A stretch of 37,932 bases of DNA. Source: a virus. How positions within the stretch are numbered: the stretch's first letter is position 1; every line of letters starts with the position of its first letter. The position numbers were made by a program, and so were the translations under genes. Positions 4,818 to 21,499 of this stretch are shown here, in pieces. The stretch is taken from positions 1 to 37,932 of the IMG/VR virus record IMGVR_UViG_3300009506_000100; one strand, 5' to 3'. Below the pieces are notes generated by a model. It saw only the letters and a list, made by a program, of their open reading frames with translations, did no database searches and was not told the origin of the DNA.

Positions 4818-6962
4818 ATGCCTAACGTAACCATCGACTTCAATGCCAACTTAGCCCGTTGGTCTGGCCAGATAGACAAGGCCATGGGCGATCTTGACAG
4901 GTTCCGTGACAGAGCGGATAAGTTATCCACCAGCATGGGGTCATTGGTGCGCACTCTCGGGGTCGGCATCAGCGTGGCTGGCATCGCTGGTCTTGTAAAG
5001 GGTGTGATCGACGCGCAAGACGAGATCGCGAAGATGAGCCAGAAAACCGGCTTGGCTGTTGAGACTCTCGCCGGTCTGCAACATGCCGCTGATCTATCGG
5101 CAGTCGGAGTCGATCAGCTGGCCAAGGGCGTCCGTACGTTCTCGGTGCTAGTTGATGAAGCGGCCAACGGCCAGAAGTCCTATCAGGATAAGCTCGTGTC
5201 ACTCGGCCTAAACTACAGGGACTTACAGAACTTATCGCCGGAAAAGCAGTTTTACAAGCTGGCCGACGCAGTGTCGAAACTCGGCGCTCAAGATCGCGCC
5301 ACCAAGGTAGCTGCCGCGTTGGGTGATCGCATGTCGGTGTTGGTGCCTCTGCTGTCCGGGGGCGCTGACGAGTTGCGCAGGATGGTGGAAGAGGGGCAGC
5401 GTTTTAACCCGGTCACGGCTGAATCGGCCAAGCAAGCTGAAAAGTTTAACGACGAACTAGACCGCCTGAAGAAGGCGGCTGGTACGGCTGGTATCAAGGT
5501 GTCGATGGAGTTGTTGCCTCCGATGGCCGATTGGCTAGTTGCAGTTAACAAGCTTATTGAGCGTTACGGGGTTTTGGTCGGTGTGTTGGCCGGGATCGGT
5601 GCTGCAGTCGTCCCCGGCCTAACCGCCGATCAGGTAGCCGGGACTGAGGACCAGCTTGACAAGTTCAGGAAGAAGATCGCCGGCCAAAAGGAGGAATTGC
5701 TCAGTCTTGAGAACCAGCTTAAGAGTGGTGCCGCTGGCGAAGGCCTTCTGCAGCGCTATTTCTTCGGGTCAACCGCAGAAGTGCAGACCCACATCAAGGA
5801 ACTGCGCGAGATCATAAGGCTGAACGAAATCAGTCTGCAGCAAGCTGAAGATCGCCTTAAAAAAGCGTCTGAGGAGGGCGCTAATGGTGCCACTGAAGCG
5901 GCTAAGAAGGCGCAATGCGAAGCCAGCAACGGCGTATGGGATGGCAAAAGCTGCAGGCCCAAACCCACTGGCGGTGCCAAAGTCGATCCGTTGGCCGGTC
6001 TGATCAACAGCACTGATGTTGGCCGCATGCGTGAGTTTGACAAGACCGTTGCGCTTCTCAATGCGCGGTTCAACAATGGTACTAAGGACGTCGAACTGTA
6101 CACGCAGGCAATGTCAAAGCTGATTGAAAAGACGTTTGCCGGTAACTACAAGACGAAGGCGTACAATGATGAGACTGAGCGCATGGTGGCCGAACACTTA
6201 AAAGCTACTACCGACGAATTGCGCGCACAGAAGCAAGAATGGATCGATGCTGGTAAGGCGATCGAAGATCAGTACATGCCAGCGAGCGAGAAGTTGGGCC
6301 AACGAATCGACTACTTGAACGAACTGTTTGCGCGGGGGCTTATTAGCCATGACGCACTTGACGCGGCGACTGCGGACGCGTTTGACAGTGCGGGTGCCTC
6401 CATTGAAAAGGCAACCGACGTGATGTCGGTATTTGCTGAGCAGGCAGCGCGTAACATACAGGACGCGTTTGCTGAGTTCCTGTTCGACCCGTTTGACCAA
6501 GGGCTGGGGGGTATGTTGAAGTCGTTCGGGGTAACGATCCAGAAGATGGTAGCACAAGCCGTTGCTGCAGACTTGGCCAAGCGTGTATTTGGCAGTCTTG
6601 GTGGTGGGACCGGAAGCGGGTGGTTGGGGTCGATTGCCAACTTCCTAAAGTCGGAGGATGGTAACGTGTTCATGAATGCTCCTGCGTTGTCCGCTTATTC
6701 CGGGTCAGTCGTCAGCAAGCCGACTGTGTTCCCGTTTGCAAACGGTATCGGGCTTATGGGCGAAGCTGGACCAGAAGCAATCTTACCATTGAAGCGCGGA
6801 CCTGATGGGAAGTTGGGCGTTGATGCCGGTGGTGCCAAGGGCGGGCACACCGTGAACGTGTATTTGTACGGGGTTAACAACGCGCCTGATGTACGCAACG
6901 CTGGCGGCAAGGTTGCGCGTCAAGTGCTGGGGGCTATTGAGGGGAGCCGTCGTTATGGCTGA
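4818..6962 (+). CDS. Tape measure protein (714 aa)
   Basis: Long, helical, Ala/Gly/Lys-rich protein downstream of the chaperones. It has hydrophobic Gly-rich segments (VGISVAGIAGLV, GVLVGVLAGIGAAVV). The position is canonical. Confidence 0.9.
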   Translation: MPNVTIDFNANLARWSGQIDKAMGDLDRFRDRADKLSTSMGSLVRTLGVGISVAGIAGLVKGVIDAQDEIAKMSQKTGLAVETLAGLQHAADLSAVGVDQLAKGVRTFSVLVDEAANGQKSYQDKLVSLGLNYRDLQNLSPEKQFYKLADAVSKLGAQDRATKVAAALGDRMSVLVPLLSGGADELRRMVEEGQRFNPVTAESAKQAEKFNDELDRLKKAAGTAGIKVSMELLPPMADWLVAVNKLIERYGVLVGVLAGIGAAVVPGLTADQVAGTEDQLDKFRKKIAGQKEELLSLENQLKSGAAGEGLLQRYFFGSTAEVQTHIKELREIIRLNEISLQQAEDRLKKASEEGANGATEAAKKAQCEASNGVWDGKSCRPKPTGGAKVDPLAGLINSTDVGRMREFDKTVALLNARFNNGTKDVELYTQAMSKLIEKTFAGNYKTKAYNDETERMVAEHLKATTDELRAQKQEWIDAGKAIEDQYMPASEKLGQRIDYLNELFARGLISHDALDAATADAFDSAGASIEKATDVMSVFAEQAARNIQDAFAEFLFDPFDQGLGGMLKSFGVTIQKMVAQAVAADLAKRVFGSLGGGTGSGWLGSIANFLKSEDGNVFMNAPALSAYSGSVVSKPTVFPFANGIGLMGEAGPEAILPLKRGPDGKLGVDAGGAKGGHTVNVYLYGVNNAPDVRNAGGKVARQVLGAIEGSRRYG

Positions 6963-7830
6963 GTTTTTGGAAGAACGGCTAAGCATCGATGTGCGCATGG
7001 GTGCTAGTTATGCGGACGACTTCGCCGTTGAGATTTCTGAGGACGCTGGTGGCAGCGAGTACAGGCACTTGATTCACCCGTACCTGCGCAGAGAATTCAC
7101 CGTCATGTACACTAAGGTCACCCCCGATTTATGGGCCAGTGTGATCAGCCTGTACCACCGCGTTTACGGCAAATACGCGGGGTTCCGTGTCCGTTGTGAG
7201 GATGACTTCTCCACCAACGGTGATGTGCTCGACCCCACCGCATTCGACCACGTGCTACAGGAGCTTACTGCTTACACCACGTACCAACTGCTGAAGGAAT
7301 ATGGTGCCGGAGGTGCAGCCATCAGCGTCGGCCCTCCGTTGCGCACCATCTTCAAGCCGGTGGCGGGCACGGTGCGTGTGGCCATCGATGCGCTGGAGCA
7401 GCAGGAGGGGAAGCTGTGGACCGTCGACACGACCACCGGCATCGTGTCGTTTGCGGCGGACAAGACGCGGGCTATCACGGGCATCTCACAGGCCGCAAAC
7501 GCGGTAGTCACCGTGGGTTCACACACGTTTGCCGTGGGGGAGTCATTGAACTTCTCCGGTGTGGTCGGCATGACGGAGATAAACGGTCTGCGCGGAGCCA
7601 TCATCGCAGTGGACACACTCAACGTGACGGTTGCAATCGACACCACCGCGTTTACCGCTTACACCAGCGGGGGCAATGTGCATACACAACCGCAGGTGGG
7701 TGAGGTCGTGAAGGGTGGGTGCCAGTTTGATATCCCGTGCCGCTTTAATGGCCGCATCGACATCAACGCCATCGAATACGGAATCCGTGAATCCGGGCAG
7801 ATTGACATTCTGGAGTTACTGAACCCATGA
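6955..7830 (+). CDS. Distal tail protein, DUF2460 / RcGTA gp12-like (291 aa), with an inserted FCCH-like beta-barrel
   Basis: The N-terminus MAEFLEERLSIDVRMGASY... resembles the conserved start of the DUF2460 family. The ATG at 6955 follows GAGGGGAG and overlaps the TMP stop. The track start at 6889 would overlap TMP by 74 nt. Confidence 0.7.
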   Translation: MAEFLEERLSIDVRMGASYADDFAVEISEDAGGSEYRHLIHPYLRREFTVMYTKVTPDLWASVISLYHRVYGKYAGFRVRCEDDFSTNGDVLDPTAFDHVLQELTAYTTYQLLKEYGAGGAAISVGPPLRTIFKPVAGTVRVAIDALEQQEGKLWTVDTTTGIVSFAADKTRAITGISQAANAVVTVGSHTFAVGESLNFSGVVGMTEINGLRGAIIAVDTLNVTVAIDTTAFTAYTSGGNVHTQPQVGEVVKGGCQFDIPCRFNGRIDINAIEYGIRESGQIDILELLNP

Positions 7831-13117: not shown

Positions 13118-13411
13118 ATGGCGGTATCAAGGGAAGAAGCACGGTTGATCGCGGAAGACGTTGTGCGAGCATGCCGGTCAGAAATCGATCACGAGATCAG
13201 GAAGTTGCACGATCACGACATCGAAAACGCATGGACGGAAGAACGCGCAAAGCAGATAGCGGAGGAAGCCGCGTCTATCGCCGTTACGCGCATTACGCAA
13301 AACTTCTATATGAGCGTTGGCAAGAAGTTTATAGCAACTGTCGGCGTAACGGTGGTGGCTTTAGTTTACTACTTGAAAGACGAGGTGACGAGATGGATTG
13401 GAAGCAGATAA
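13118..13411 (+). CDS. Small membrane protein (97 aa, single C-terminal TM). Holin or lysis-accessory candidate.
   Basis: Charged helical N-terminus followed by the hydrophobic stretch FIATVGVTVVALVYYL. SD GAGGACGGG. First gene of the lysis cluster. Confidence 0.55.
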   Translation: MAVSREEARLIAEDVVRACRSEIDHEIRKLHDHDIENAWTEERAKQIAEEAASIAVTRITQNFYMSVGKKFIATVGVTVVALVYYLKDEVTRWIGSR

Positions 13412-13587
13412 AAGACATCATCAAGCGCGAAACGCTGGGGTGGGTTGTTGCGCTGCTCATACTCGGCATGCTCCTGACGGCTATCGTGGACGTTGTGCAG
13501 GTTGCGTATCTCATCAGGCACGAGAACGCAATCGAAGCGCTGGAGCAGGGATATGCGGCGCACGAAGCAAGGGAGTCTGCTAAATGA
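13393..13587 (+). CDS. Small membrane protein (64 aa, one TM). Holin, antiholin or i-spanin-like candidate.
   Basis: ATG at 13393 after GAGGTGACGAG. TM segment LGWVVALLILGMLLTAIVDVV. ATGA overlap with the lysozyme start. Only this C-terminal part of the 175-aa track ORF (13060-13587) is plausible. Confidence 0.55.
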   Translation: MDWKQIKDIIKRETLGWVVALLILGMLLTAIVDVVQVAYLIRHENAIEALEQGYAAHEARESAK

Positions 13588-14636
13588 ACGCCCGCGACTT
13601 GGTCAAGCAATCCGAAGGCCTGAGGTACAAGGCTTATCGCGACTCGCGGGGTGTGTGGACTATCGGCTATGGCCACACCAAGGGCGTTGCTGAAGGGGAC
13701 ACGTGCACCAAGGAGCAAGCCGAATTATGGCTCGATGCCGACCTTGCATCCGCGTTCATGTTAATTGATCAGGTGGTGTCTTCGCCGCTGACCACCCAGC
13801 AGCGTGATGCGCTGGCTAGTTTTGTGTTCAACGTTGGACCGGGCTTGAAAGGAGATAACGACGGATTTTTGGTACTTAAGTCTGGGAAGCCGAGCACGAT
13901 CCTGCTGAAGTTAAACGCAGGCGACATGTTTGGTGCCGCAGACGAGTTGTTGAAGTGGACACGCGCAGGTAGCACCCACCCAGCTGGCTTGGTGGTCAGG
14001 CGCAAGCGGGAACGCGCATTGTTCCTGTCCGGCACCGACATCAATCCGGACCCTATTCCCACTCAGGAGGATAACGACATGGCACCATTTCTCATGGCAG
14101 CAATCCCGGCACTCATTCAGGAGTTGCCCAACTTCGCAAAGATTTTTCAGAATAAGGACGTCGCCGAGCGCAACGTTGAAGCAGTGACCAAGGCAGCGGA
14201 CATCATCGTTAAGTCGGTCCCCGGCGCGTCAAACCTACAGGATGCGGTCGAGAAAATCCAGACCGACCCTGAAGCGAAAGACGCGGCTAATGAAGCCGTG
14301 AAGATGAGCACGGCTGATCTGCTCGACGTCATCGAGCGCGTGAGTGCGATCGACCAGAAGAGCATCGACAGCGCCCGTGTGTTCAACGCTGGTGAACCGC
14401 TCATGATCAACAGCAAGCGCATCCAGATGAAGTTCTGGCATGTGCTCGCGCTGTTTGTCACCGTCGCGTTCCTTGTCGCAGTCGTGGTAGTCGCGGTCAA
14501 GTCGACCAACGAGGGCGAACGCATGATGATGTTTCAGGCGTTGATCGGCTCCTACCTGCTGATCATGGGCTTCGTGTTCGGGTCCAGCACCGGCAGCAAG
14601 GTGAAGGACTTCATGCGTGGCGGGCCACAGCCATGA
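13584..14636 (+). CDS. Endolysin: N-terminal GH24 (T4/lambda-type) lysozyme fused to a ~190-aa C-terminal region that ends in two TM helices (350 aa)
   Basis: GH24 catalytic pattern QSEGLRYKAYRDSRGVWTIGYGHT (Glu, Asp, Thr), plus QQRDALASFVFNVGPG. C-terminal hydrophobic helices FWHVLALFVTVAFLVAVVVVAV and MMMFQALIGSYLLIMGFVFGSS. Confidence 0.85.
   Translation: MNARDLVKQSEGLRYKAYRDSRGVWTIGYGHTKGVAEGDTCTKEQAELWLDADLASAFMLIDQVVSSPLTTQQRDALASFVFNVGPGLKGDNDGFLVLKSGKPSTILLKLNAGDMFGAADELLKWTRAGSTHPAGLVVRRKRERALFLSGTDINPDPIPTQEDNDMAPFLMAAIPALIQELPNFAKIFQNKDVAERNVEAVTKAADIIVKSVPGASNLQDAVEKIQTDPEAKDAANEAVKMSTADLLDVIERVSAIDQKSIDSARVFNAGEPLMINSKRIQMKFWHVLALFVTVAFLVAVVVVAVKSTNEGERMMMFQALIGSYLLIMGFVFGSSTGSKVKDFMRGGPQP
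14079..14636 (+). CDS. Possible in-frame internal translation product of the endolysin gene: membrane domain only, 185 aa, holin-like candidate
   Basis: A perfect AGGAGG at 14065-14070 lies 8 nt upstream of the in-frame ATG at 14079, at the boundary between the lysozyme domain and the C-terminal region. Confidence 0.3.
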   Translation: MAPFLMAAIPALIQELPNFAKIFQNKDVAERNVEAVTKAADIIVKSVPGASNLQDAVEKIQTDPEAKDAANEAVKMSTADLLDVIERVSAIDQKSIDSARVFNAGEPLMINSKRIQMKFWHVLALFVTVAFLVAVVVVAVKSTNEGERMMMFQALIGSYLLIMGFVFGSSTGSKVKDFMRGGPQP

Positions 14637-14974
14637 CGTACGAATACAGGCATGTTGGCGTGGTCCATGTCGTCGACGGTGATACCGTGAAGCTGATCGT
14701 CGACATGGGCAACAAAATCCGGTGGACTGAGAACTTCCGCTTGTTCGGGATCGATACACCCGAGCGGGGGCAGGTCAACCACGATGAGGCTACCGACTAT
14801 CTAAACAAGCTGTTGTCGAATGGGGTCACGCGGATCGTGACCTATAAGCCGGATAAGTATGGCAGGTGGCTCGTCGACATATGGGTTGCCATCGATGGCG
14901 GGGAGCTTCACGCAAATCACGCGATGGTCGTGGAAGGATTTGCCAAGGAGTATTTCGGCGGGAAGAAGGGCTAG
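14633..14974 (+). CDS. Staphylococcal-nuclease (SNase / thermonuclease)-like nuclease, 113 aa
   Basis: SNase pattern VVDGDTVKL ... FRLFGIDTPE ... DKYGRWLVDI ... NHAMVVEGFAKEY. ATGA overlap with the endolysin stop. Confidence 0.75.
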   Translation: MTYEYRHVGVVHVVDGDTVKLIVDMGNKIRWTENFRLFGIDTPERGQVNHDEATDYLNKLLSNGVTRIVTYKPDKYGRWLVDIWVAIDGGELHANHAMVVEGFAKEYFGGKKG

Positions 14975-14988
14975 CGCCTCTGGTGTGT

Positions 14989-15162
14989 TCATGGCATCAC
15001 CATCCACAGCTTAACAGCGATACCGATCGTGAGGAAAAACACACCCAAGATCAGCGATAACCCTAGCAGATGCCACCAGTGGTCCTCCTTAACCTTCATT
15101 GCCGTGAGATAGACAGCACCGTATGCGGCGCTAACCGTGAGTATGAAACCGATAGACGTCAT
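14989..15162 (-). CDS. Small two-TM membrane protein (57 aa), below the ORF-track cutoff
   Basis: Hand translation gives MTSIGFILTVSAAYGAVYLTAMKVKEDHWWHLLGLSLILGVFFLTIGIAVKLWMVMP. Its ATG overlaps the upstream stop (ATGA at 15159-15162). Confidence 0.5.
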   Translation of the reverse strand: MTSIGFILTVSAAYGAVYLTAMKVKEDHWWHLLGLSLILGVFFLTIGIAVKLWMVMP

Positions 15163-15620
15163 GATCTTCCCCTTCGTTGTGATTTGACCGGGGAGCTATG
15201 AGTATAGCTCCCTCCCCGTTTGACAACCTCCGTGATGGCACGACACAAGCCGGAGACGTCCTCGTAGACCAGCGCTCGGCTCGCCGCATCCGCCCACGGC
15301 AAATCCCTCGACTCCGCCAAGCTGCTCCACCTCCATAAGAAGTGGGCGTTGGGGGTGCCTATCCACAAGTAACAATGCCCCGACCCTTTGCTGCCGCGCT
15401 GTATGAGCCAATCCTGCTGCCCGTGCGTGTAGTGCTTGATCGCATTCAACGACTTTGGTATCTTCTCGCAGTACTTTATTTCGATCCAGCCGTCCGCACG
15501 GTGTGCGCTGAACGACAGGTCGGGTATGAAGTTCTGCACTGAGTCCTCGTGTTGCTGAGTCTTCCAGCCCAGCCCGCGCAGCAGGTCGGCTACTTCGTGT
15601 TTGTACTCCAGTTCTGTCAT
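15159..15620 (-). CDS. VRR-NUC / PD-(D/E)XK nuclease (153 aa)
   Basis: Motif NFIPDLSF ... DGWIEIKY ... HGQQDWL matches the PD...(D/E)xK core and the VRR-NUC pattern. ATGA overlap with the upstream gene. VRR-NUC genes often co-occur with phage SNF2 helicases. Confidence 0.7.
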   Translation of the reverse strand: MTELEYKHEVADLLRGLGWKTQQHEDSVQNFIPDLSFSAHRADGWIEIKYCEKIPKSLNAIKHYTHGQQDWLIQRGSKGSGHCYLWIGTPNAHFLWRWSSLAESRDLPWADAASRALVYEDVSGLCRAITEVVKRGGSYTHSSPVKSQRRGRS

Positions 15621-16192
15621 GGCGGGGTGAGCCTCTCCGACTGGTTCACAAACGGAAGCCCCAAATCCATCAGCACCGGATTCGCAGTGTCATATGCCTC
15701 GTGTTCGTGCACGAAGTCCTCCACTGCCCGCCAGCACTTATCCGCCACAGTTCTAGCATGGTGGCCAGCGCCATTCTCCCCGATCCACCATGCCGCCTCG
15801 ATCAGATCGGCCAACTTGATCAAGTTGCGTTCCACTCCGGACAAGCTGCGACCCGGCGACGGTGTCAAATACGGAAGGTTTGGCATGATGTCGGCATCCA
15901 TGCTGTGGAAGATATCGACCACCTCATCCGGATTCTGGCGGCTGCGTATGAACGACTTACCCGGCGTGGGTATGTCGCCATACCTGATTTCGGGGGAATC
16001 GTGGAACATCAGCGCAGTCATGAAGTGCGCGGACGGCTCACCCAACATAGCCCGCTTAAACAATTCCAGCCCGATCACCGTCACGTTGTACTGGTGCTCC
16101 GCAAGGTTCTGCTCCTTGGTGGTGTTTATGATGGTCCACCGCTTGATGTGGCTGGTGCGGGCCAGTTCGTAGAAGCTTAGCTCTTTGCTCAT
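15617..16192 (-). CDS. datZ: HD-domain phosphohydrolase, YfbR-like. Candidate DatZ (dATP triphosphohydrolase).
   Basis: Motifs HIKRW, NLAEHQYNV and LMFHDSPEIRYGDIPTPGK match the YfbR-like HD pattern. Third gene of the purZ operon, joined by ATGA overlaps on both sides. Confidence 0.65.
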   Translation of the reverse strand: MSKELSFYELARTSHIKRWTIINTTKEQNLAEHQYNVTVIGLELFKRAMLGEPSAHFMTALMFHDSPEIRYGDIPTPGKSFIRSRQNPDEVVDIFHSMDADIMPNLPYLTPSPGRSLSGVERNLIKLADLIEAAWWIGENGAGHHARTVADKCWRAVEDFVHEHEAYDTANPVLMDLGLPFVNQSERLTPP

Positions 16193-16621: not shown

Positions 16622-17677
16622 TCAATCCCCCTTAGTAGTGAAAACGTCGTTGTGGGAAGCACCCCAGCCAAGCATGGTCAACTCAGCGCCAGTGTTGCTG
16701 ATGATGCGCTCATAGTCGTGCAGCCGCAGCGCATTCTCATCCTCGTCGCGCTCGATGTAGTTGACGAAGTTTAGAAACACCTCGTCGACTCCGTTCATGC
16801 GCACGGCATCGGCGATCTGCTGTGGCGAGAACGTGAAAATGCGTCGCGGCAGTTGAGTCACCGTGGTAAGTTCTGGCTCCATTCCGAGTTGGCTCCACTC
16901 GATCTCGCGCTGGTCGTCGTAGCACGGGCCAGAGGTGCCGACCTGTACACCGTCCTTGTAACGATTGGCGACGCGGATCGGGTAGGTGCGTGCGCAGCCG
17001 TAGACGCGGGTGTTCCTGCTCTGAGCGAATGCACGTGGGATCGCACAATCGGACAGTAGCTGGTGCGTTGTACAATCACGGCTGGTGGTGTACGGATAAA
17101 AGCCCTGATTTATCGACAGCGAGAATCCCTGTGCGCCCTCCAGCAACAACTTGTTTGCGGAGTCGAGCGCGCTGTTATAGTCGTCTGCCGACGCCAGCAG
17201 TGCTTCCAGTGGCGTGCCCACCAACACATCGCGTGCGATAATGCTGGCATCCGGATCGCGCTTAATCTTTTCGATGACTGCGGCACCCACACCCTTCATC
17301 GTGCTGCCGATCTTGAACATAGACTCGGATTCAGCCAAGCGATGACCGGCACTCACTACGGCTGCGTTCTCGTGGATGAAAATCTGCACCCCGTCGAGAT
17401 ACTCGATGTAATCGTTAAGCTCATTCCACAGGTTGTCGATGTCGATCACCGAGCCGGGACCGATCAAAATGCGGCGCAGGTTGGGGGACACGATGCCGTT
17501 GGGTAGTGCGCAGTTAACGAACTTCTTGCCGTTGGAATCGATGTACGTGTGGCCAGCGTTCGGACTCCATGCGATAGCGATCGTGTCATATGCGTGCTTC
17601 TCGGCCAGATACCCGGCCAGCAGCCCTTTACCCGTGCTGCCGTATTGCAGATCGGTGATGATGTCGAATCTCTTCAT
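16622..17677 (-). CDS. purZ: Adenylosuccinate-synthetase homologue of the PurZ type (predicted N6-succino-2-amino-2'-deoxyadenylate synthase), 351 aa
   Basis: PurA signatures are kept: SPNAGHTY, IGSTMKGVGAAVIEKI, EGAQGFSLSINQGFYPYTTS. The P-loop reads QYGSTGKG instead of the PurA GDEGKGK. The protein is ~80 aa shorter than cellular PurA and sits next to MazG-like, HD and PolA genes. Confidence 0.8.
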   Translation of the reverse strand: MKRFDIITDLQYGSTGKGLLAGYLAEKHAYDTIAIAWSPNAGHTYIDSNGKKFVNCALPNGIVSPNLRRILIGPGSVIDIDNLWNELNDYIEYLDGVQIFIHENAAVVSAGHRLAESESMFKIGSTMKGVGAAVIEKIKRDPDASIIARDVLVGTPLEALLASADDYNSALDSANKLLLEGAQGFSLSINQGFYPYTTSRDCTTHQLLSDCAIPRAFAQSRNTRVYGCARTYPIRVANRYKDGVQVGTSGPCYDDQREIEWSQLGMEPELTTVTQLPRRIFTFSPQQIADAVRMNGVDEVFLNFVNYIERDEDENALRLHDYERIISNTGAELTMLGWGASHNDVFTTKGD

Positions 17678-18345: not shown

Positions 18346-20205
18346 CTATTTGCTTGCTTCGAACCAATTCGGCCCAACTTCGACCGACGACTTGATGGGT
18401 ACGCGCAGCCTGATAGGACAACGCTCACCATCGAAAACTTCTAACACCTCCTTCACCATGCCAGATTGTCTGGCAGACTCCGACTTTCGCATGGAGAAGT
18501 CCAACTCATCGTGCACGGACAGCAGCATTCCAATGCCTTCACTCTGGCACACAGGCCAGAGTTCTACCATCTTCTGCTTCATGCAGTCCGCACTCGATCC
18601 CTGAAATACAAGGCCACCCGCCTTATGCGTGTACTTGCCACCGGGGAAGCGGATATGCCGCCCCATGATGGTCTTCACATAACCGCGTGATTTGGCGATA
18701 GCCGACGCCTCACTCAGTAGCTTGGATACGCCCGGAATCGCACCGTGGTATGTGCCGAAAATCTCCTCGGCCTTGGGTCCAGCGTTGAACCACTCGCGGC
18801 CATCGGTGCCGTAACGTACCGTATAATCAAGTCCCATCTCGTACGCCATCTTACCCTTACCCATACCAAACACTAGACCAAGGTTTATCTGCTTCGCGTT
18901 GGCGTCACCCGCGAATCGCGGTTTGCGCGGAATACCAGTAAGGTTGGACACGATCTGGTGATAGTCGGTATCAGGGTCGTCCGCGTATGCCTTTAGAATG
19001 TTGGGGTCTTTAGTGTAATGGGCGAACATGCGAAACTCCATCTGCGCCCAATCCGCGCAGCACCAGTCGTGCCCGTCCTCGGGTATGAAGCATGAGCGCA
19101 CGATAGCTGCGATGTCAACGTCCCGCGCTGGAATCTGCTGCAGCGCCGGGTCATTGATGGAGAATCGGCCAGTGCCGGTGCCTAGGTCGTTGTCGCCGCG
19201 TGTCTGATTGTAGTTTGGGTAGACGCGCCCGCCCACAGCGTGCGCGATGATGTGGTCCTTCAGGAACGAATTCGCCTTCGTCATCTTGCGCAGTTGTAAC
19301 ACCTGCTTGGCCCGCGCATCACCCTGCTCGGACATGATAACTAGCGTATCCTTACCAAGTGATGGCCCATCCGAATCGGTCATCGGCAACAGGAACCCCG
19401 AATCGGTGCGCCATTCGAAGCCCTTCGGATTGTCGGCGTCGCACTTCTTCACCTTGAACAGTTCACGCATCTGCTTGGGCGAGTTTGCGTTCATGACGGC
19501 ACCAGCCAGTTTGTCTAGTGCGCGTTGTGCCTCGTCAATCTTGCGGGCGACGTCCTTCATGGAGCCGTGCGCACGCTGTTCGTCCACGCGCACCCCCTGA
19601 CGCTCAATGTGGCACAGGATCGGCGTTACTCGCTTTTCCAGCGACCACACCTGCCCCAACTCTTGACGTTTGATCTCTTCCTCCTGCCACAACCACAGCT
19701 TGATAGCGAGCACGGGGTCTTCGATTGCGTACTTCCCGGCCAACGACTCTGGCGCACGATGCAGGTTGGGCATTTGTGCCTCGCGTGTGGGCTTGCCACC
19801 AAACATCGCCGCCAGTTCCGCGTAGATGTCGACCTTTGACACGTTCAGGTACTTGCGCGACAATGAGTCCAGACTGAAGGAGCGCTCGTGCTCGTTGATA
19901 AGTGCGGAGCGAACGCTGGTGCACTCGATGGAGTCGTCCGACACACGCACACCTTTGTTCATCAGGAAGTTTACGTCGAACTTGATGTTGTGGTTTACCA
20001 GCCGTTTGATCAGCGGCACCTCAGTGCGCAGCATCTCGACCACACGCGTCTTGCTGCGGATGTCGAAATAGCCGGACACGATCTTCTCACCGTCATAAGC
20101 AGCGACAGCGATCCCGAACACATCGTCCTTGTACCAGTGAAGTCCAGTAGTTTCAGTGTCGATCGAAACTATTGGGTACTCGTGCAGCCTTGCAAGATTC
20201 AGCAT
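18346..20205 (-). CDS. Family A DNA polymerase with 3'-5' proofreading exonuclease (619 aa). Candidate DpoZ-type polymerase.
   Basis: Exo motifs: VSIDTETTGL, NHNIKFDVNFL, YAIEDPVLA. Pol motifs: A DWAQMEFRMFAHY, B AKQINLGLVFGMGKG, C LSVHDEL. The ATG at 20205 follows GGGGG. The track start at 20235 is a TTG that overlaps the helicase gene. Confidence 0.9.
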   Translation of the reverse strand: MLNLARLHEYPIVSIDTETTGLHWYKDDVFGIAVAAYDGEKIVSGYFDIRSKTRVVEMLRTEVPLIKRLVNHNIKFDVNFLMNKGVRVSDDSIECTSVRSALINEHERSFSLDSLSRKYLNVSKVDIYAELAAMFGGKPTREAQMPNLHRAPESLAGKYAIEDPVLAIKLWLWQEEEIKRQELGQVWSLEKRVTPILCHIERQGVRVDEQRAHGSMKDVARKIDEAQRALDKLAGAVMNANSPKQMRELFKVKKCDADNPKGFEWRTDSGFLLPMTDSDGPSLGKDTLVIMSEQGDARAKQVLQLRKMTKANSFLKDHIIAHAVGGRVYPNYNQTRGDNDLGTGTGRFSINDPALQQIPARDVDIAAIVRSCFIPEDGHDWCCADWAQMEFRMFAHYTKDPNILKAYADDPDTDYHQIVSNLTGIPRKPRFAGDANAKQINLGLVFGMGKGKMAYEMGLDYTVRYGTDGREWFNAGPKAEEIFGTYHGAIPGVSKLLSEASAIAKSRGYVKTIMGRHIRFPGGKYTHKAGGLVFQGSSADCMKQKMVELWPVCQSEGIGMLLSVHDELDFSMRKSESARQSGMVKEVLEVFDGERCPIRLRVPIKSSVEVGPNWFEASK

Positions 20206-20206
20206 G

Positions 20207-21499
20207 TCAACCCCCAATGATGGACGGTGGTTCAAATAGTGGGTTGCCTCCGCTCAGGATCAACTCGTCTGAGGTGCGCGTCAGAGCCACGTACAGGACG
20301 CGCAGTTCGGCATCACGATCGTTGTATATCCCGGACAGCACGCGTGTGGGCAGGTTCAGGTCGACTACAACGCGTCGATGCTCACGCCCCTTGGCCTGAT
20401 GGATCGTCGACAGCTGCACCTCGATCGGCTTGTTCAGGTCCGCTTGGGCGTAGAACTCGCGCAGGTGGATCGGAATCTCGGGCTTGCCGCCCTCGCGCAA
20501 CTCACGAGCGATCCTGCTCGTCCACGGGCTGACGCCACCCATCACCGAGTAAGGGACCATGGCCCGATTCAGATCGCGTTTTATGTCGGCGAGCCGAGCG
20601 CGATCACGCGCCAGCACGAGTGCTCCACCATCGGCGGCGATTCGCTGCAGGTCGATGTAGTGAAAGTCGTTGTATGTCGTGATGTTACCCACGGCATTGC
20701 GCGGATAGAACTGCTTCCGTACCCTGCGCCCGATCTGGGCCAACGCGACATCATGGGCAAGGTCGTGCACCATGCGCGGTACCCGATGCGACTGGCGTAA
20801 GATGTGTAACTCGCCCTCCGTGGCCTGCATGAAGTCAAGCATGCCGTGGGGGTCGGCACCATTCCACTCGTAGATCGCTTGGTCGTCATCGCCAGCGATC
20901 ACCACCTCGCATTGCTCTGGCAGCAGGGTGCGGAGCACCACCCACTGCAGCGGCGAGCAGTCCTGTGCTTCATCTAGGAACACACGCTTGTACTGCGACA
21001 GATCGCCCCGCTTTGCCCACTCCTTGAGCATGTCATCAAAGTCAACGTACCCGTATGCGGCTTTCCAGTCCTCATACGCACTGGCGAAGAACGTGAACCT
21101 GCGCATGGTCCCCGGTCTGCCGAAGTGGTCGTACGCCTCCATATGGCCTATCGACCTGTTGTTTGCGTACGCTACGACTGCCGCGTATTCATCACCCTCT
21201 TGCTGTTCCTCCTCTGACCCAGATTCGCTACCGCGCATCGGTACCCCGGCCATCTCAGCAAAAGACTTAAGTTTGGCTGCGTCTACCACTTGCGCCCGAG
21301 TCAGGCCAAGTTGGTGAAACGCTAGTGAATGCATGGTTGAGGCTGTGATGCCTTCATTCCCCTTGATCCGGGACTTCATCTCCAGTGCTGCCGCCTTGGT
21401 ATATGACAGAAGCAGGGTATCCTTCCTCCCCTCTGCCAGATCGACCAGCGTTCTCGTTTTCCCGGTGCCGGGGGGACCAAATATGGCTGAAACCTTCAT
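20207..21499 (-). CDS. Superfamily 1 (UvrD/Rep-like) DNA helicase, 430 aa
   Basis: Walker A GPPGTGKT, motif II FLDEAQD, and C-terminal STIHQAKGRE and LYVALTRT. Confidence 0.85.
   Translation of the reverse strand: MKVSAIFGPPGTGKTRTLVDLAEGRKDTLLLSYTKAAALEMKSRIKGNEGITASTMHSLAFHQLGLTRAQVVDAAKLKSFAEMAGVPMRGSESGSEEEQQEGDEYAAVVAYANNRSIGHMEAYDHFGRPGTMRRFTFFASAYEDWKAAYGYVDFDDMLKEWAKRGDLSQYKRVFLDEAQDCSPLQWVVLRTLLPEQCEVVIAGDDDQAIYEWNGADPHGMLDFMQATEGELHILRQSHRVPRMVHDLAHDVALAQIGRRVRKQFYPRNAVGNITTYNDFHYIDLQRIAADGGALVLARDRARLADIKRDLNRAMVPYSVMGGVSPWTSRIARELREGGKPEIPIHLREFYAQADLNKPIEVQLSTIHQAKGREHRRVVVDLNLPTRVLSGIYNDRDAELRVLYVALTRTSDELILSGGNPLFEPPSIIGG

Follow-up and report, generated by a model that had tools for sequence, protein, structure and literature searches.

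In phages of Gram-negative bacteria, lysis is usually described as a process in which a separate holin frees a soluble or signal-anchor-release (SAR) endolysin. Holin genes with dual starts are known from phage lambda (S107/S105) and phage 21 (S68/S71), with the starts for holin and antiholin lying 1-3 codons apart. The GTA_holin_3TM family (PF11351, DUF3154), to which the RcGTA holin belongs, consists of small membrane proteins of phages and gene transfer agents (GTA) that are encoded together with an endolysin. The holin of Vibrio phage ICP1, TeaA (Gp137), has been shown experimentally to function as such, collapsing the PMF and being triggered by DNP (Hays & Seed 2020, PMC7182436). A natural fusion of a holin to an endolysin has been described for the TpeE family of Clostridium sporogenes, in six genomes only (PMC9527704). 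Two-polypeptide endolysins, whose genes contain an internal start, include CTP1L, CD27L, Lys170 and phi2638A; their long and short products are thought to co-assemble, and the survey of such internal-start endolysins deliberately excluded phages of Gram-negative bacteria as being unlikely to have these sites (PMC4777826, PMC9430671, PMC12203907). No published description was found of an architecture in which a lysozyme is joined to a TeaA-like module with an internal start, and this previously undescribed layout was found here to be common to hundreds of uncultured phages.

The window analysed, meaning the whole stretch of 37,932 nucleotides, carries an ORF for a putative endolysin-holin fusion of 350 aa (13584..14636; all features described are on the plus strand), with homologues of the same layout ranging from 318 to 385 aa. 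The first 150 aa (13584..14033) were matched by the lysozyme family PF00959 of Pfam at aa 8-143, covering the whole of the 125-position model (E 5.5e-35, 120.9 bits against a gathering cut-off of 22.3), and by the endolysin family phrog_7 (E 4e-51), while the PDB lysozymes 9kbq, 6et6, 3hde and 2anv aligned with aa 2-150 only. AlphaFold modelled this domain with a pLDDT of ~90. The catalytic triad E11, D20 and T26 could be read in QSEGLRYKAYRDSRGVWTIGYG and MNARDLVKQSEGLRYKAYRDSRGVWTIGYG and was conserved among GH24-type homologues (alignment A1). These findings agree with the standard GH24 lysozyme given for the N-terminus in the preliminary description. Hydropathy analysis of aa 1-45 (N-terminus MNARDLVKQSEG) identified no hydrophobic window that could act as a SAR or signal segment, and classification as a SAR endolysin was rejected, as the weakly hydrophobic N-terminal signal-anchor-release helix is not present. 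By these comparisons, aa 1-150 form a GH24 muramidase domain of the cytoplasmic type with an intact triad, the muramidase activity being inferred in the absence of an enzyme assay.

The lysozyme is followed by a proline-rich and acidic interdomain linker (aa 151-165, GTDINPDPIPTQEDND; 14034..14078), which also holds the internal ribosome-binding site described below. Model confidence was lowest here (pLDDT < 50 at aa 157-163), and the sequence of the linker was found to differ between homologues, with the reading frame open in all of them. Scans for promoters, terminators and composition near the joint of the two halves gave nothing above chance, and the region showed no similarity to known phages at the nucleotide level.

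The remainder of the protein (aa 166-350) corresponds to a nested in-frame ORF of 185 aa (14079..14636), which was assigned as a TeaA-type holin module by homology and profile search and which would be the inferred short product. A tblastn search with aa 166-350 against 50,697 phage records (2.3 Gb) matched only teaA of ICP1-type phages (29.7% identity over 96% of the query, E 2e-5), and pairwise BLASTP against TeaA gave an alignment running from Met1 to the GS-x-GSK-x-KD tail (E 5e-15). TeaA starts with MAPLLATAIP at the Met equivalent to M166, and its tail bears the matching signature GSTKGSKDKD. Furthermore, a family-pattern scan picked up the ICP1-type locus at E 2e-12, and diverged modules taken from GH19 fusions also matched TeaA. 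Both proteins, which are of similar size (182 aa for TeaA, 185 aa for the module), have a head of the form MAP(F/L)L...P...P..F, a helical middle of ~90 aa, two TM helices and the GS-x-GSK-x-KD tail. They differ in setting, as teaA is a stand-alone gene of a ~125-kb myophage that adjoins the antiholin gene arrA and does not adjoin the endolysin gene, whereas the module is fused behind a lysozyme on a 38-kb siphophage-like contig. No homologue of ArrA (phrog_14386) was found among the neighbours in the window by PHROG search and alignment. Judged by sequence and comparison, aa 166-350 are a full-length homologue of TeaA. The holin-like nature suspected for the C-terminal part is thereby supported by whole-length homology to a proven holin, with holin activity of the module remaining an inference, function being known for TeaA alone at ~30% identity.

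Of the elements previously read from the C-terminal part, the amphipathic segment and two TM helices were recovered by hydropathy analysis in 19-residue windows and the helical region in the AlphaFold model. The head segment MAPFLMAAIPALIQELPNFAKIF (aa 166-188; 14079..14147), a possible "TM1" of a 3-TM description, is amphipathic and only marginally hydrophobic (KD 1.17, muH 1.43); the mean across the family was 1.54, with 45% of members at 1.6 or above. Prolines are conserved in it at i, i+7 and i+14, and residues P168, F169, L177, L181, P182, F184 and F188 are nearly invariant in alignment A1. It is followed by a soluble helical region (aa 189-282; 14148..14429), seen in the AlphaFold model (helices H191-270, hairpin 273-283) and predicted to be cytoplasmic by positive-inside analysis, with the conserved motifs ERN, N-Q-AVEK, DP and AR-F. 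Two clear TM helices then follow, at aa 284-305 (14433..14498; KD peak 3.23 at aa 287-305, model helix H284-306) and aa 313-334 (14520..14585; KD peak 1.89 at aa 314-332, model helix H310-332). The family signature G-S-S-x-G-S-x-x-K-D (14580..14609) stands right behind the last helix, with G333, S334, S335, S338 and K341 invariant in alignment A1. The C-tail is net positive, and K+R exceed D+E throughout the family. This topology is based on hydropathy and charge counts only; the AlphaFold model of the module alone was poor (pLDDT 67.6), and no structural match to it was found in the PDB.

The preliminary description had also suggested a relationship of the C-terminal part to PF11351, and this could not be substantiated. 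With hmmscan, no PF11351 match was obtained for the fusion protein at E<=1, for TeaA and six truncated relatives at E<=10, or for 130 family members at E<=0.001. These negative results lack a positive control for the presence of the model in the library copy. Relatives of Pelagibacter phage HTVC010P are reported to carry PF11351, and a control was sought among the membrane ORFs of that phage and none was found, the HTVC010P candidate being aligned with the family profile at a probability of 1.4% in hhalign. The precomputed Pfam annotation of the module was empty. TeaA itself has been assigned to PF11351 by remote homology (PMC7182436), and the top BFVD match of the module model in Foldseek is named "Holin of 3TMs, for gene-transfer release", this match being weak (E 0.038, TM-score ~0.3, model pLDDT 67.6). 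The tie to PF11351 is thus a remote one, resting on the published statement for TeaA and this single weak structural match. The PF11351 family has three TMs by name; two clear TM helices were identified in the module, with the marginally hydrophobic head segment as a possible third. The reading of two products from one ORF does not depend on the argument from a GTA-like tail made in the preliminary description.

A profile search with the module yielded 647 cluster representatives. Among 174 relatives that were classified, ~140 were in-frame fusions to wall-degrading domains, with N-terminal domains of lambda-R type (60), GH24 (38), GH19 (31), Enc34 type (5) and SLT-like (4); the rest comprised two with an unidentified N-terminal domain and 34 that were short. 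Sources of the fused homologues were metagenomes, IMG/VR contigs and a Nevskia MAG (locus L007). Sequence and comparison show the module joined to five unrelated wall-degrading domains through an open, proline-rich linker. The fusion is real and selected. Two relatives, P0010 (SLT-like) and P0011 (GH24), have near-identical modules from "EEPMAPFL" on and unrelated N-terminal domains, and the joint behaves like a gene boundary. Truly unfused modules were identified only in ICP1-type phages, Vibrio phage 1.084.O and contig L037, on which the lysozyme gene ends in a stop codon and is followed, after 116 nt, by a separate module gene with AGGAG 7 nt upstream of the homologous ATG. Module genes of 175-190 aa that had seemed to stand alone (L015, L019-L022, L031-L033) were rejected as such, all of those examined being open in frame to the contig edge. 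No fusion was found in cultured phages, as represented by the 50,697 GenBank phage records, with three different modules and the full protein as queries; a match in BUCT554 proved to be an internal virion protein and not a fusion.

Re-reading of the sequence confirmed the AGGAGG (14065..14070) previously noted, with 8 nt separating it from an in-frame ATG at 14079 (codon 166 of the fusion ORF). The ORF therefore has two in-frame starts, each with a ribosome-binding site at the same spacing, as an SD-like AGGGAG (13570..13575) lies 8 nt 5' of the ATG at 13584. The duplex of the internal Shine-Dalgarno (SD) sequence with the anti-SD is the stronger of the two (-10.3 against -7.9 kcal/mol) and ranks third of the 48 gene starts in the window, and its energy was equalled at only 0.6% of 652 internal in-frame ATG/GTG codons. 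In homologous ORFs, ATG or GTG codons with an SD core 4-12 nt upstream make up 0.3% of in-frame codons, so that about one such site is expected per 350-codon ORF and a single occurrence is unremarkable. An SD core was found 5-9 nt before module position 1 in 16 of 18 independent fused loci, where the codon at that position is ATG in 11 and GTG in 7. Synonymous resampling gave an expectation of 8.4 SD cores in the 18 loci (P ~4e-5), and the valine codon at the junction is GTG in 7/7 cases (P ~6e-4); these P values are optimistic, as the loci are related. Among 135 fused representatives, 95 have a Met within positions -4 to +2 of the module start, against an expectation of 12%, and 7 lack both Met and Val near the joint. 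Gene callers were found to have repeatedly picked the internal start. Local RNA structure at this start was not stronger than that of shuffled sequences. These comparisons show a strong SD followed by ATG or GTG, conserved exactly at module position 1.

The reading that we favour, with reasonable though incomplete confidence, is that an endolysin gene harbours a complete in-frame holin gene in its 3' half and gives rise to two products, a tethered fusion and a free holin. Expression of both is inferred: no transcript, ribosome-profiling or protein evidence exists for either product, and the sequence was found only in DNA runs of a marine sediment metagenome. That one ORF could make two proteins had been raised in the preliminary description, and this is now the best-supported reading because the SD and start at the boundary are conserved, across five enzyme domains, beyond what amino-acid conservation explains. 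Ribosomes would start at 13584 to produce the 350-aa fusion and at 14079 to produce the free 185-aa holin, and both products are inferred to be anchored in the inner membrane by their pair of C-terminal TM helices. The positive-inside rule would place the helical middle and the C-tail on the cytoplasmic side, and the lysozyme of the long form would consequently wait there, tethered to the membrane. The common module may allow long and short forms to co-assemble, and when holin triggering opens the membrane, the tethered muramidase would already be at the lesion and could reach the peptidoglycan. The route by which a tethered cytoplasmic enzyme gains the wall has not been established.

A different explanation, which we regard as unlikely while granting it real weight, is that only the full-length protein matters, acting as a membrane-anchored endolysin that itself permeabilises the membrane and lyses without a holin, with the internal SD-ATG being a leftover of the fusion. 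Holin-independent lysis has been reported for endolysins of the M4Lys/Enc34 type and for LysAP; such endolysins with C-terminal TM domains (TMDs) are toxic only at full length, and lysis by them requires the membrane part (PMC8943055, PMC8879335). The fusion is also always in frame with a typical proline-rich linker, and selection on the long product is thereby shown; the conserved glutamate of the linker accounts for about half of the SD occurrences (8.4/18 expected), and no SD core was found in two of the 18 fused loci (L010 and L014). However, a relic should decay, and SD and start were found to persist across modules that are 25-50% identical and behind five N-terminal domains. Synonymous codon choice favours the SD, valine is always GTG, and locus L008 retains the SD in a different codon phase, with its GGAG encoding Gly-Asp and not x-Glu. 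Furthermore, the module is an entire stand-alone holin and not a bare anchor. The TMD of the chi-like ST-W139 endolysin was found to be unrelated to it (hhalign with module profile A5, probability 0.1%), and homology to the Enc34/M4Lys-type TMD was rejected.

The genes around the fusion bear on a further alternative. The putative lysis cassette opens with the gene for a 97-aa protein (13118..13411), which is helical in its N-terminal part and has one TM at its C-terminal end. The next gene (13393..13587), as read from the sequence, encodes a 64-aa protein that has its TM at the N-terminus (LGWVVALLILGMLLTAIVDVV) and ends in a helical tail; the stop codon of this gene overlaps the lysozyme start (ATGA). 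Neither had a Pfam, PHROG or NCBIfam match. The 97-aa protein, of unknown function, could be an antiholin, a holin or a spanin-like factor; L004, L007 and L023 encode similarly built proteins, 21-26% identical to it, in the same position ahead of the fusion gene, and L023 also has an 85-aa counterpart of the 64-aa protein with an N-terminal TM. Downstream, a gene for an SNase-family nuclease (14633..14974; PF00565 E 7e-10, phrog_452 E 2e-26) overlaps the end of the fusion gene by ATGA and is translationally coupled to it. This is a conserved neighbour, also found in L023 and L025. It is conceivable, and in our view improbable, that the module is a regulator or anchor (antiholin-like or a sensor) and that the true holin is the product of 13118-13411 or 13393-13587. 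Each of the two upstream proteins has a single TM, and translational coupling links them to the fusion gene; the build of the former is conserved at the three loci named above, and holin function in the module family has been tested for TeaA only (PMC7182436). The low identity to TeaA and these two small membrane proteins, which could be the real holin or regulators, are among the points that count against the model of a nested holin gene. Against a regulatory role stand the homology to TeaA, which is whole-length with the signature motifs included, the difference in upstream genes at other fused loci (L002, L029) and the absence of any match of the upstream proteins to a known holin or antiholin family, ArrA included.

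That the internal SD-like sequence is not a start and instead imposes a translational pause at the domain boundary, allowing time for lysozyme folding or membrane targeting, is very improbable: the motif does lie exactly in the interdomain linker, 5' of the first hydrophobic segment, but a pause gives no account of an ATG or GTG at a fixed spacing of 5-9 nt or of valine encoded by GTG only, and the unfused L037 has an identical SD-ATG. An assembly or frameshift artefact joining two genes that are always separate, the outcome named earlier as one that would undo the fusion, is for practical purposes refuted, since although the window is a metagenomic contig and the related L037 has separate genes, ~140 of 174 relatives are independent in-frame fusions from many samples and assemblers, and the composition scan identified no break at the joint of lysozyme and module.

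Returning to the nested holin gene with two products, several extensions are speculative. The head (aa 166-188) may have to flip N-out for hole formation, like TMD1 of lambda S105; the bulky lysozyme on the long form could block this flip, making it a built-in antiholin until depolarisation, and the ratio of long to short form could then set lysis timing. Taken to its end, this would make one gene the whole lysis clock, with the short form as holin and the long form as endolysin and antiholin, triggering turning the inhibitor into a hole-former and delivering the enzyme. With one holin as its constant part, the family would form a modular "plug-in" cassette that accepts any wall-degrading domain in exchange for another, and it might be the source of SpmX-like cellular proteins with GH24 and two TMs. 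This larger proposal is doubtful, and an antiholin role for the long product is conjecture. What has been identified is a complete holin of a validated family placed covalently behind an endolysin with its own conserved start, an arrangement seen with five enzyme domains and across hundreds of sequence clusters. It would form a compact and directly testable one-gene lysis module, provided that both products are made. There are also consequences for annotation, as the internal start leads gene callers to divide or shorten these genes, and the family is labelled only "lysozyme" or "hypothetical protein" because no Pfam or NCBIfam model exists for the module.

Comparison with other known systems showed partial likeness to each. 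SpmX of Caulobacterales, a domesticated phage GH24 lysin, shares the GH24 domain, proline-rich middle and two C-terminal TM helices, and NCBIfam model NF051871 for SpmX matched aa 3-246; membership was rejected, the score of 67.5 bits falling far short of the cut-off (700). The SpmX protein acts in cells as a polarity factor and its active site is attenuated; the authors of that study also mention, in passing, phage muramidases joined to different TM segments (bioRxiv 10.1101/418723). No SpmX-like proteins were found in the module searches. Enc34 ORF39, the M4Lys/Siskin type and LysAP of Acidovorax phage AP1 have the same order of N-terminal enzyme and C-terminal membrane segment without an N-terminal signal, but they have short membrane parts of ~40-70 aa (one or two helices), a separate holin is present in those phages and no internal start has been reported. 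The Enc34-type enzyme domain does occur fused to a TeaA-like module in L004, and production of both forms would bear on how Enc34, M4Lys and LysAP endolysins reach the wall. The TpeE fusion likewise unites holin and endolysin in one polypeptide; its holin is instead N-terminal and consists of one TM and an amphipathic helix, the host is Gram-positive and no nested start has been described.

The dual-start holins of lambda and phage 21 resemble the present gene in having two in-frame starts, a longer product extended N-terminally from the first membrane segment and the possibility of timing by ratio. Their products differ by a few residues, whereas here 165 codons separate the starts and a 150-aa enzyme domain makes up the extension. 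The two-polypeptide endolysins likewise have an SD and in-frame start at a domain boundary, with the C-terminal domain shared by long and short products. They belong to phages of Gram-positive bacteria and their short product is a cell-wall-binding domain, whereas the short product here would be a TeaA-type membrane protein. If both products are made, internal-start endolysins would extend from Gram-positive to Gram-negative phages, with a different partner.

The ORF at 13584-14636 (+ strand) encodes 350 aa, and comparison with relatives gives good support to what is the simplest reading of it, namely that one ORF may yield two products, an endolysin-holin fusion tethered to the membrane and a free holin resembling TeaA, the stand-alone holin of Vibrio phage ICP1. 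There are no expression data; the only runs containing the window sequence are DNA runs from marine sediment metagenome, and expression of two products is inferred. In its N-terminal half, the Phage_lysozyme domain (PF00959) was identified with Pfam at aa 8-143 (E 5.5e-35), the protein matched the PHROG family phrog_7 'endolysin' (E 4e-51), and solved GH24 lysozymes aligned to aa 2-150 only. Residues E11, D20 and T26 were all present, and no hydrophobic segment was found at the N-terminus, which places the enzyme domain among cytoplasmic lysozymes that depend on a holin. In the AlphaFold model of the protein (mean pLDDT 82.7), the lysozyme was modelled with confidence, the linker was disordered (aa 157-163) and the C-terminal half was entirely helical. 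The top NCBIfam match of the lysozyme domain was BgtA, the endolysin of the Bartonella gene transfer agent (E 5e-29, far under the cut-off), followed by SpmX; the BgtA match was the sole GTA-related signal seen in the analysis.

By hydropathy, the C-terminal membrane module (aa 166-350) has TM helices at aa 284-305 and at aa 313-334, both of them strong. All features of the lysozyme/two-TM fusion put forward in the preliminary description are present. The segment at aa 166-188 is marginally hydrophobic and amphipathic, and mean hydropathy of the head segment across the family was 1.54, close to the TM threshold. Comparison of aa 166-350 with 50,697 phage genomes (tblastn) identified teaA of ICP1 and relatives as the sole gene matched (82 records, 29.7% identity, 96% coverage). 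Pairwise alignment of the module with TeaA (E 5e-15) extended from TeaA residue 1 (MAPLLATAIPTLINLLPDFAKWF against MAPFLMAAIPALIQELPNFAKIF at the head) to the common tail (FFFGSTKGSKDKD against FVFGSSTGSKVKD), meaning that the stand-alone holin begins exactly at the position of this gene's internal ATG. TeaA has experimental support as a holin: when expressed by itself it causes the proton motive force to collapse, and dinitrophenol triggers it (PMC7182436). Charges averaged over 149 modules were K+R 1.1 and D+E 1.9 in the inter-TM loop, 2.0 and 1.3 in the 15 residues ahead of the first TM, and 3.6 and 2.2 in the tail, which under the positive-inside rule suggests a cytoplasmic location for both the helical middle domain and the tail. 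The module is covered by no Pfam or NCBIfam model, and precomputed Pfam annotation over it was empty. A link to PF11351 (GTA_holin_3TM), proposed preliminarily for the module and drawn for TeaA with a remote-homology tool (PMC7182436), was not reproduced, as hmmscan (without a positive control for the model) did not detect this family in the fusion protein, TeaA or 130 relatives. Its only echo here came from Foldseek, where the low-confidence module model weakly matched (E 0.038) a viral protein bearing the name 'Holin of 3TMs, for gene-transfer release'.

Upstream of the fusion gene lies a conserved, translationally coupled pair of genes for small membrane proteins (13118-13411 and 13393-13587), one product having a helical part with a C-terminal TM and the other an N-terminal TM with a helical tail. 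Counterparts were found on contigs carrying module relatives (L023 1817-2134, 2125-2382 and 2363-2461; L004 5108-5407; L007 4906-5292), with an additional 32-aa TM peptide among those of L023. That one of the two is the true holin, with the module acting as a regulator, is not excluded; neither matched a known family, and no obvious o-spanin lipoprotein was seen among them. Downstream, a gene for an SNase-family nuclease (14633-14974) shares an ATGA with the fusion gene, whose stop codon it overlaps, and is kept at the same place in relatives (L023 3483-3827; L025 1159-1497). It is unusual for a lysis cassette to end with a nuclease gene. Further genes include a PurZ homologue (16622-17677, - strand; phrog_1211, E 8e-83; PDB 7odx 'succinoaminodeoxyadenylate synthetase (PurZ)', E 1e-80), near which lie an HD-domain YfbR-like deoxynucleotidase, possibly DatZ-like (15617-16192, - strand), and a PolA-type DNA polymerase, possibly DpoZ-like (18346-20235, - strand). 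The phage probably has 2-aminoadenine (Z) replacing adenine in its DNA.

At the boundary between enzyme and module, the AGGAGG (14065-14070) located 8 nt ahead of an in-frame ATG (14079, codon 166) was confirmed. An SD with a start codon within an ORF is not rare, occurring at ~0.3% of in-frame codons in module-fusion genes, but this one is exceptionally strong. Its duplex energy of -10.3 kcal/mol ranked third among 48 gene starts of the window, exceeded that of the lysozyme's own start (-7.9 kcal/mol) and was equalled by only 0.6% of 652 internal ATG/GTG codons. When the joint was extracted from 18 non-redundant fused loci, an SD core (AGGAG, GGAGG, AGGAGG or GAGG) was found 5-9 nt ahead of the start codon at module position 1 (ATG in 11, GTG in 7) in 16 of them, being absent in L010 and L014, while L008 keeps GGAG in a different codon phase (Gly-Asp). 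The linker peptides at the joint vary (QEDND, EENT, KEKV, KEKD, EEKP, KEDT, MEDKP, KEND, KETK, TEAK, TEDNE, QEVHT, IGDKP, TKEPT, VEAQP), and synonymous-codon resampling of the observed residues predicted an SD core in only 8.4 of the 18 loci (Poisson-binomial P ~4e-5 on the assumption that the loci are independent). All seven junction Val codons were GTG, a codon that accounts for just 21-54% of the Val residues in the ORFs concerned (joint P ~6e-4). Both P values are optimistic, since the loci are related. Among 135 fused representatives available only as proteins, 95 had Met at -4 to +2 of the module start (expected 12%), 33 had Val only and 7 had neither. The start signal is nonetheless consistent across highly divergent modules and all enzyme types.

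It could be argued that only the long protein functions and that the start signal is a relic, given that the C-terminal membrane domains of M4Lys/Enc34-type endolysins and LysAP are required for lysis. The synonymous-site and GTG evidence for a kept internal start makes this less likely, and the membrane domain of the chi-like endolysin is also unrelated to the module (hhalign probability 0.1%). Were the internal SD instead a pause site, the conserved start codon would be left unexplained.

Fusions of this kind are widespread and modular in architecture, and they form a large family so far without a name. When the C-terminal part was used as query, proteins of 326-349 aa were returned in which the module again lies C-terminally, behind various N-termini, and a profile search of 1.84 billion representatives gave 647 matches at E<=1e-3, of which 316 reached E<=1e-10. 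Among 174 proteins classified, with N-domain identities checked against PHROGs and the PDB, lambda-R-type transglycosylase (60), GH24 (38), GH19 (31), Enc34-type (5), SLT/PF18013-like (4) and unidentified (2) domains were found, along with 34 short proteins. With ~140 independent fusions and no composition break seen at the joint, an assembly artefact is excluded. Seven short proteins were traced to contigs; in six (P0006, P0017, P0022, P0179, P0191 and that of L015) the frame ran on without a stop to the contig edge, which lies a few dozen bases upstream, and encoded the usual linker residues there, indicating truncated fusions for which the gene caller picked the internal start. The seventh (P0084, on the 51.8-kb contig L037) is genuinely unfused, its gene following a GH24 lysozyme gene, a stop codon and 116 nt, with AGGAG 7 nt ahead of the homologous ATG. 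Unfused module genes were otherwise found only in ICP1-type phages and Vibrio phage 1.084.O. Enzyme domains are exchanged at the joint, as the SLT-like P0010 and the GH24 protein P0011 have near-identical modules from 'EEPMAPFL' on and unrelated N-domains. L023 and L025 are syntenic with the window (small membrane proteins upstream, SNase gene downstream), with a lambda-R-type domain replacing GH24. The fusion gene of L004, an IMG/VR contig, has an Enc34-type domain, and the two window genes pointing at the lysis cassette from the opposite strand (15159-15620 and 15617-16192, both - strand) are clearly homologous to genes in the same position there (6526-6939 and 7021-7572, both - strand), so one phage lineage carries different enzyme domains.

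No fewer than five metagenomic contigs, obtained from different samples, start at most a few dozen bases from the joint (L019, L020, L021, L022 and L033, each beginning 25-37 nt upstream of the internal ATG). This would be expected if co-occurring variants share the module and differ in enzyme domain, causing assembly graphs to branch there, and fits the P0010/P0011 swap. On these contigs, L032 and L031 (266-820), callers took the internal start, even where 88 in-frame codons upstream were open, and public protein sets consequently hold many apparently stand-alone proteins of 175-190 aa that in fact represent the 3' half of a fusion gene. The close relative P0024 (272 aa, 3680-bp contig) is 95% identical to the window's module over its first ~45 aa, diverges from the family past '...AADII' and terminates early, possibly representing a chimeric or frameshifted copy.

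For the two-product reading, the frame across the variable Pro-rich linker is always open, implying selection for the long protein, while retention of a gene-start signal at the head of the holin module implies that the short protein is also wanted. The earlier interpretation of this gene is largely borne out; its proposal of two proteins gains from SD conservation and TeaA homology and remains without experimental proof. With the middle domain and tail cytoplasmic, the long form would keep its lysozyme waiting on the cytoplasmic side, tethered to the membrane. The long form may co-assemble with free holin via the common module, and on holin triggering the enzyme would already be at the membrane lesion. 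Conjecturally, if the head segment must flip N-out, like TMD1 of lambda S105, and is prevented from doing so by the enzyme joined to it, the long form would be an antiholin.

Full-text searches (endolysin-holin fusions, C-terminal TM endolysins, DUF3154/PF11351, TeaA) found no published account of this architecture, and no genome of the GenBank phage collection carries the fusion. A paper on SpmX, whose NCBIfam model touches the fusion protein far under its cut-off, mentions in passing phage muramidases joined to unrelated TM segments (bioRxiv 10.1101/418723), and a survey of internal-start endolysins set Gram-negative phages aside as unlikely to hold such sites (PMC9430671). By descent, the closest relative of the module is TeaA. 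Analogues by design are the endolysins with a C-terminal TMD (Enc34, M4Lys, Siskin, LysAP), the dual-start holins, the internal-start endolysins of Gram-positive phages, and TpeE, a holin-endolysin fusion of the reverse order in six C. sporogenes genomes (PMC9527704). The window gene combines a holin-endolysin fusion with an internal-start endolysin.
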